Positions 1-237 of a stretch of 237 bases of DNA are shown one piece after another. The stretch lies in assembly GCF_003334315.1 (NCBI RefSeq), contig NZ_QOWR01000141.1; one strand, given 5' to 3'. How positions within the stretch are numbered: the stretch's first letter is position 1; each line of letters opens with the position of its first letter. This DNA comes from Escherichia coli (GTDB lineage Bacteria; Pseudomonadota; Gammaproteobacteria; Enterobacterales; Enterobacteriaceae). The translations under genes and the position numbers were made by a program. The notes under the pieces are model-generated. The model worked only from the letters and a program-made list of their open reading frames with translations, had not been told where the DNA came from and searched no databases.

Positions 1-19
1 TGATAGAAACAGAAGCCAC
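1..19 (-). CDS. insA: IS1 InsA (transposition regulator and N-terminal part of the InsAB' frameshift transposase); first 6 codons only, CDS continues beyond the window
   Basis: GTG start at 19-17 on the minus strand, followed by GCT TCT GTT TCT ATC, i.e. (M)ASVSI, matching the InsA N-terminus MASVSISC. The start is 56 nt from the IS1 terminus, consistent with the known insA position in IS1. Only 19 nt lie in the window. Confidence 0.72.
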
Positions 20-26
20 TGGAGCA

Positions 27-45
27 CCTCAAAAACACCATCATA
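27..45 (-). promoter_or_regulatory. insA translation-initiation region: Shine-Dalgarno GAGG (30-27) and a candidate -10-like hexamer TATGAT (45-40) of the IRL-associated insA promoter
   Basis: GAGG lies 7 nt upstream of the GTG start, which is good spacing. TATGAT sits about 20 nt upstream of the start region. The insA promoter is known to overlap the IRL, but exact -35/-10 assignment here is my reading and not verified; no convincing -35 is seen at 17-bp spacing. Confidence 0.4.
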
Positions 46-51
46 CACTAA

Positions 52-74
52 ATCAGTAAGTTGGCATCATCACC
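52..74 (-). repeat. IS1 terminal inverted repeat (IRL, about 23 bp); InsA-binding end of the element
   Basis: The minus strand reads GGTGATGATGCCAACTTACTGAT, against the canonical IS1 IRL GGTGATGCTGCCAACTTACTGAT (22 of 23 matching). IS1 ends are established binding sites for InsA and carry an IHF site; I cannot place those precisely from sequence alone. Confidence 0.85.
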
Positions 75-237
75 GAATCTATATACTGAACCGGATTCAG
101 CGGATACTGATAAAAATTCCATCCCCCCTTCAGCCCAATCGGATCCTGAGTGATATACCTCCCCTGCAGCGGGTCATAATAGCGGTGGCGGTTGTAATAC
201 AGGCCGGACTCCTCATCATACTGCTGCCCCGGCAGGC
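53..237 (-). CDS. Rhs-family (YD-repeat) core protein, 3' end of the conserved core domain; ORF interrupted by IS1 at 74/75 and terminated inside it (probable truncated gene or pseudogene lacking its C-terminal toxin domain). 5' end lies beyond the window.
   Basis: Minus-strand frame starting at 235 translates without stops to [53 protein letters not shown], then S-VMMPTY and TGA at 55-53. The first 53 residues match the strongly conserved Rhs core C-terminal region ([10 protein letters not shown]...[11 protein letters not shown]...YQYPLNP) as I recall it from enterobacterial Rhs proteins. The other two minus-strand frames contain early stops. Codons 55-60 and the stop are IS1 sequence. Confidence 0.85.

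Follow-up and report, generated by a model that had tools for sequence, protein, structure and literature searches.

An Asp-Ser core/tip boundary next to IS1 in Escherichia coli, read as the normal sequence of a common ybfO-type Rhs allele

The window analysed here, a stretch of 237 nucleotides of E. coli DNA, joins the end of an Rhs core to the left end of an insertion sequence, and at this junction the residue after the aspartate of the core/toxin boundary motif would be serine, not the proline of the published consensus. This raises the question of whether the serine belongs to the Rhs allele itself or marks a place where the DNA next to the element is not the native continuation of the gene. 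Both options had been put forward in an earlier note on the same window.

On the minus strand, the window is read in a single frame, which consists of the C-terminus of an Rhs core (...NPVQYID) followed by the IS1-encoded residues VMMPTY and a stop. The Rhs part, the 3' end of a core coding sequence, was assigned by translation and by exact identity to the four allele sequences L001-L004. It covers 163 nt at window positions 75..237 (-), that is, 53 residues and the TC of a Ser codon, and thereby the last 54 residues of the core domain up to the position after the second Asp (D+1). Homologues of this flank are annotated as RHS repeat-associated core or RHS element core protein. The first DPxG(L) motif, DPIGL, lies at 131..145 (-), its Asp codon (145..143) encoding the first Asp of the catalytic pair. 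The PxxxxD portion of the core/toxin boundary motif is PVQYID at 77..94 (-), in which GAT at 79..77 encodes the second catalytic Asp. The flank ends in GAT TC (79..75), as the earlier note had stated and as direct reading of the sequence confirms. The range given there, 74-79, contains this GATTC and is one base too long, since window position 74 is the first G of IS1 (GGTGATG...). At 75..76 (-), TC opens the native Ser codon, for which intact alleles have TCA; in the window, its third base is supplied by the initial G of IS1 (TCG), and Ser is retained. Reading through past the Asp gives Ser-VMMPTY, and the frame terminates six codons into IS1 at a TGA found by translation at 53..55 (-).

The left end of IS1 (IRL, GGTGATGATGCCAACTTACTGAT...) occupies window positions 1..74 (-), with the transposase running in the same direction as rhs. 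The earlier identification of the element was correct, as 73 of the 74 positions from 74 to 1 are identical to the canonical left end (GGTGATGCTGCCAACTTACTGAT...). The sole difference in the IRL is at IS1 position 8, window position 67, where an A replaces the canonical C (GGTGATGATGCC vs GGTGATGCTGCC). This variant is a minority allele: annotated IS1 copies that are 100 % identical to the window end were found in 364 E. coli records, and among the 9,314 matching records, 364 reached at least 99 % identity and 8,044 had 95-99 %. The exact position of the IS1 terminus is confirmed by a nearby IS1 in strain ECONIH5 (L002), which is flanked by a 9-bp target duplication.

The origin of the Ser codon can be answered from uninterrupted alleles. 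Alignment with intact homologues, which the earlier note had proposed as the check, yielded GAT TCN (Asp-Ser), the outcome it had named for a natural variant. All 163 nt of the flank recur without any difference in L001, L002, L003 and L004, and uninterrupted alleles run on with A ATG GGA CTG GCA TCA..., so that GAT TCA ATG GGA CTG encodes D-S-M-G-L. This allele is of the ybfO type and occurs either as an orphan behind rhsC-ybfB or at the 3' end of full-length rhs genes. In K-12-type genomes, the copy at the ybfO position, between ybfB and ybfC, is an orphan Rhs fragment truncated at its N-terminus, and it is annotated as a pseudogene fragment. Intact full-length genes without internal stops carry PVQYIDSMGL in the strains E2865, Santai and EE72d, all reading CCG GTT CAG TAT ATA GAT TCA ATG GGA CTG. 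The genes of E2865 and O157:H16 Santai (1,399 AA each) are located at the ybfA/rhsC locus and that of EE72d (1,395 AA) at the nikR/rhsB locus. Each of them is followed by a 189-AA gene annotated as ybfC, or as a hypothetical protein in EE72d. The K-12 ybfO-type orphan and the full-length proteins of the RhsC and RhsB loci (WP_126347089.1, WP_048237751.1, WP_040234608.1) thus share the flank, the frame and GAT TC(A) with the window, whose copy differs from the K-12 allele in that IS1 breaks up its Ser codon behind TC.

The allele is also widespread. For a 70-nt probe centred on the motif, the best place had at least 99 % identity, in effect 100 %, in 2,891 of 5,426 complete E. coli genomes, among them K-12 MG1655, and 95-99 % identity in 667 further complete genomes. 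Coverage of at least 80 % of the probe was lacking in only 13 of 3,559 genomes. Judged by these alignments, the Ser after the motif Asp is the normal sequence of a common E. coli Rhs allele and not a sign of rearrangement. Of the two options raised by the earlier note, the rhs copy with a non-canonical boundary variant is therefore the one that stands. We consider it very probable that the window represents a junction between IS1 and a ybfO-type Rhs allele of E. coli/Shigella that naturally reads DSMGL, with a flank that is native up to IS1. IS1 splits the Ser codon behind its second base, at the boundary between core and toxin tip, and the TC of the flank is the start of this codon.

The boundary of this allele was compared with the canonical aspartyl autoprotease boundary PxxxxDPxG(L/W/F) of P. 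protegens RhsA, P. laumondii Rhs1 and TccC3, for which PxxxxDPxGL has been published as the consensus (PMC8636562, PMC8765631, PMC3150448). PxxxxD is shared, as P-VQYI-D at window positions 94..77, and so are Gly and Leu at D+3 and D+4, which are encoded by GGA CTG in intact alleles and whose codons are replaced by IS1 in the window. The upstream DPxG is likewise present 18 residues before the second motif, giving DPIG-(18)-DSMG with an Asp-Asp spacing of 22 residues, which corresponds to the hyperconserved core end published as 'DPXG-(18)-DPXG' (PMC2935791). A further shared feature is the end of the Rhs_assc_core profile. The intact allele, represented by the coding sequence of L004, matched the NCBIfam model NF041261 (RHS_core) with 2640.9 bits (cutoff 2000) over positions 1-1261 of 1261 and TIGR03696 (Rhs_assc_core) with 80.8 bits (cutoff 32.5) over 1-76 of 76. 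Both profiles stop at L1247, the Leu of DSMGL, four residues past the second Asp. In contrast to the canonical boundary, the ybfO-type allele has Ser instead of Pro at D+1, as TCA in all intact alleles and as TC in the window. Hence, all tested features of an Rhs core/tip boundary are found except the Pro after the Asp.

In P. protegens RhsA, the catalytic dyad is D1324/D1346 and cleavage occurs after W1350, four residues past the second Asp (PMC8765631). In P. laumondii Rhs1, the exchange D1338N in the second motif abolishes cleavage (PMC8636562). The residue after the second Asp is not among the catalytic dyad residues mutated in these two studies. Since both catalytic Asp residues, their spacing and the G-L are kept, and D+1 lies outside the mutated dyad residues, we infer that DSMGL would still support aspartyl autoproteolysis after the Leu, although all five best-matching solved Rhs structures have Asp-Pro.

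The frequency of residues other than Pro at this position was surveyed in the 150 closest representatives of 50 %-identity clusters, which yielded 131 boundary motifs. Pro follows the boundary Asp in 112 of these motifs (99 distinct tips) and Ser in 13, while the remaining six carry Ala (2), Val, Phe, Arg or Thr (1 each), so that 19 of 131 motifs are non-Pro. The motifs with Ser belong to five unrelated tips, namely DSMGL-ASKYGHL, DSLGL-KFHVNGD, DSLGL-CVEDLC, DSLGL-VNSNLY and DSIGL-APKLNA. Pro after the Asp is thus a strong preference, at about 85 % in close relatives, and not invariant, with Ser as the commonest alternative. The earlier note had allowed that its form of the motif might be imprecise; this form agrees with the published consensus, and the doubt was justified insofar as the Pro is conserved only to about 85 %. 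Within one K-12-type genome, six of the seven Rhs boundaries (rhsA, rhsB, rhsC, rhsD and two orphans) read GAY CCN, and the ybfO-type boundary alone reads GAT TCA. Two apparent motif matches at position 22755 of L009 and position 20826 of L010 were discarded as spurious because they lie inside unrelated genes.

The prefix PVQYI also precedes Pro on another tip, PVQYIDPFGL-ADMNFYD (L005; P0121); therefore, the Ser is tied to the tip rather than to the core. Asp-Ser was also observed in another tip, PVRFIDSLGL-KFHVNGDPSD..., on a different core subtype (...GLRGEWNLYKYPLNPVRFIDS...) in the proteins P0185, P0190, P0194, P0026 and P0127. It occurs in fragments from E. coli and Shigella sonnei as well as in several 50 %-identity representatives.

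Variants without Pro are not discussed in the cited motif papers, including PMC8636562, PMC8765631, PMC2935791 and 10.1101/2024.02.26.582050, and a literature search on ybfO in connection with Rhs returned nothing about the motif. It is conceivable, but improbable in our view, that the Asp-Ser and other non-Pro boundaries, which account for about 10-15 % of the tips in close relatives, form a functionally distinct subclass with slower, conditional or absent autoproteolysis. If so, the timing or the occurrence of toxin release would change.

Several explanations other than an IS1 junction with a naturally Asp-Ser allele have to be weighed. The junction could have been generated by an IS1-mediated adjacent deletion or by IS1-IS1 recombination, in which case the DNA beyond IS1 would be missing and, in a stronger form of this explanation, the flank itself would be non-native. 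The far side of IS1, like the insA/insB genes, lies outside the 237-base window, where a target duplication is consequently not visible, and about 420 bp of the core are gone next to an IS3 at the same locus in CUPS03, which leaves a deletion some plausibility. Nevertheless, it is considered unlikely, as the flank follows the intact alleles without a break up to the junction, which also makes the reading of the Ser independent of how the junction arose. The stronger form, which the earlier note had offered as its second option, was rejected because intact alleles agree with the flank at all 163 bases, the final TC among them. The neighbouring IS1 of ECONIH5, located 8 bp downstream in the same orientation, is a simple insertion with the 9-bp duplication CAATGGGAC, which again argues against a deletion. 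With regard to known IS1 (IS1A/IS1B-type) insertions in rhs, the orientation and position of the window copy resemble those in ECONIH5 and 2014EL-1343-2. Its insertion site differs from that of ECONIH5 in lying 8 bp upstream, and its IRL has A at position 8 where ECONIH5 has the canonical C. Because this C is found in both the ECONIH5 and the 2014EL-1343-2 (L003) copies, the event in the window is independent of theirs.

An assembly chimera of two repeat families would be in line with the multi-copy nature of both the Rhs and the IS1 halves and with the absence of the exact junction from every collection searched. A 51-nt junction probe gave only chance IS1 matches in the 5,426 complete E. coli genomes, the exact 35- and 24-nt junction patterns were absent from GTDB representative genomes and JGI metagenome contigs, and no protein corresponding to the predicted Rhs-IS1 fusion peptide was present in the protein collection. 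However, the Rhs sequence gives way to IS1 precisely where the inverted repeat starts, which fits transposition and not a misjoin, and finished genomes contain real IS1 insertions at distances of 8 bp and about 270 bp. A chimera is therefore very unlikely and was rejected. The Ser might also have arisen when a pseudogene copy, already in decay, recently acquired a C-to-T point mutation, since CCA, as in rhsC, and TCA (the codon in question) are one transition apart and the K-12-type allele is annotated as a pseudogene fragment. This explanation is extremely unlikely and was likewise rejected, because TCA is also found in intact full-length genes at two loci and in most of the allele-bearing genomes, and Asp-Ser occurs on four other unrelated tips. 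A junction of IS1 with a natural DSMGL allele is thus retained as the preferred reading.

Three independent IS junctions were observed within 9 bp at the core/tip boundary. These are the window IS1, which follows ...GATTC (74-76), the ECONIH5 IS1 8 bp further on, with the target duplication CAATGGGAC (L002 3159-3180 and 3935-3950), and the CUPS03 IS3, whose right end adjoins CAATGGGAC, with about 420 bp of core missing on the other side (L007 1740-1750 and 2995-3010). This clustering may reflect a local hotspot or selection against the toxin, with the ascertainment bias inherent in a single examined spot. Mobile elements are numerous at the rhsC locus in different strains. Strain 2014EL-1343-2 has an IS5 within rhsC and, some 270 bp beyond the start of the ybfO-type tip, an IS1 (L003 1-1250, 3430-4200), and ISAs1 (H-repeat) remnants are present downstream of ybfC in K-12-type genomes (L001 4424-6163). 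In addition, IS1 insertions near the 3' ends of Rhs cores recur across E. coli assemblies, and in the protein fragments P0126, P0132, P0134 and P0142, Rhs core ends read into IS1 termini (...FYQYPGDAANLLI, ...NPIQVIGSDSNLLIVFYVQIMPDD...).

In the Rhs core, the G+C content is about 0.60-0.65; right at the motif it drops to the value of the toxin tip, about 0.43, and ybfC has about 0.30 (L004 4900-5100, corresponding to window positions of about 75-140 and beyond). The last 30 nt of the window flank already have a value of 0.43. The drop at the motif fits a horizontally exchanged module of tip and immunity genes. IS1 prefers AT-rich targets, and the low G+C content at the boundary may favour its insertion there.

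The insertion would take the toxin tip out of the reading frame and leave a toxin-less core extended by six IS1-encoded residues. As the flank is identical in orphan and full-length contexts, either an active toxin gene or an already silent orphan may have been hit. In most genomes, including K-12, the allele is an N-terminally truncated orphan, and selection on the ybfO-type motif may be weak there. This very common E. coli Rhs tip, 157 AA behind DSMGL (L004 5037-5506), had no Pfam or NCBIfam match, and the 189-AA YbfC (L004 5503-6072) had no NCBIfam match.

The case is not new in kind: a ybfO-type allele that the K-12 reference and most E. coli have long carried has been cut by an ordinary IS1. 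The odd codon belongs to the normal allele, nothing at the Ser position points to a rearrangement, and the junction as such carries little wider weight. It does bear on how Rhs boundaries are recognized. In silico cleavage at PxxxxDPxG[LWF] or DPxG[LWF] skips proteins without either motif (10.1101/2024.02.26.582050). Rules requiring 'DP' miss about one in seven tips among close relatives, including one that is present in more than half of the complete E. coli genomes examined, and PxxxxDxxG[LWF] is therefore a safer pattern than PxxxxDPxGL.
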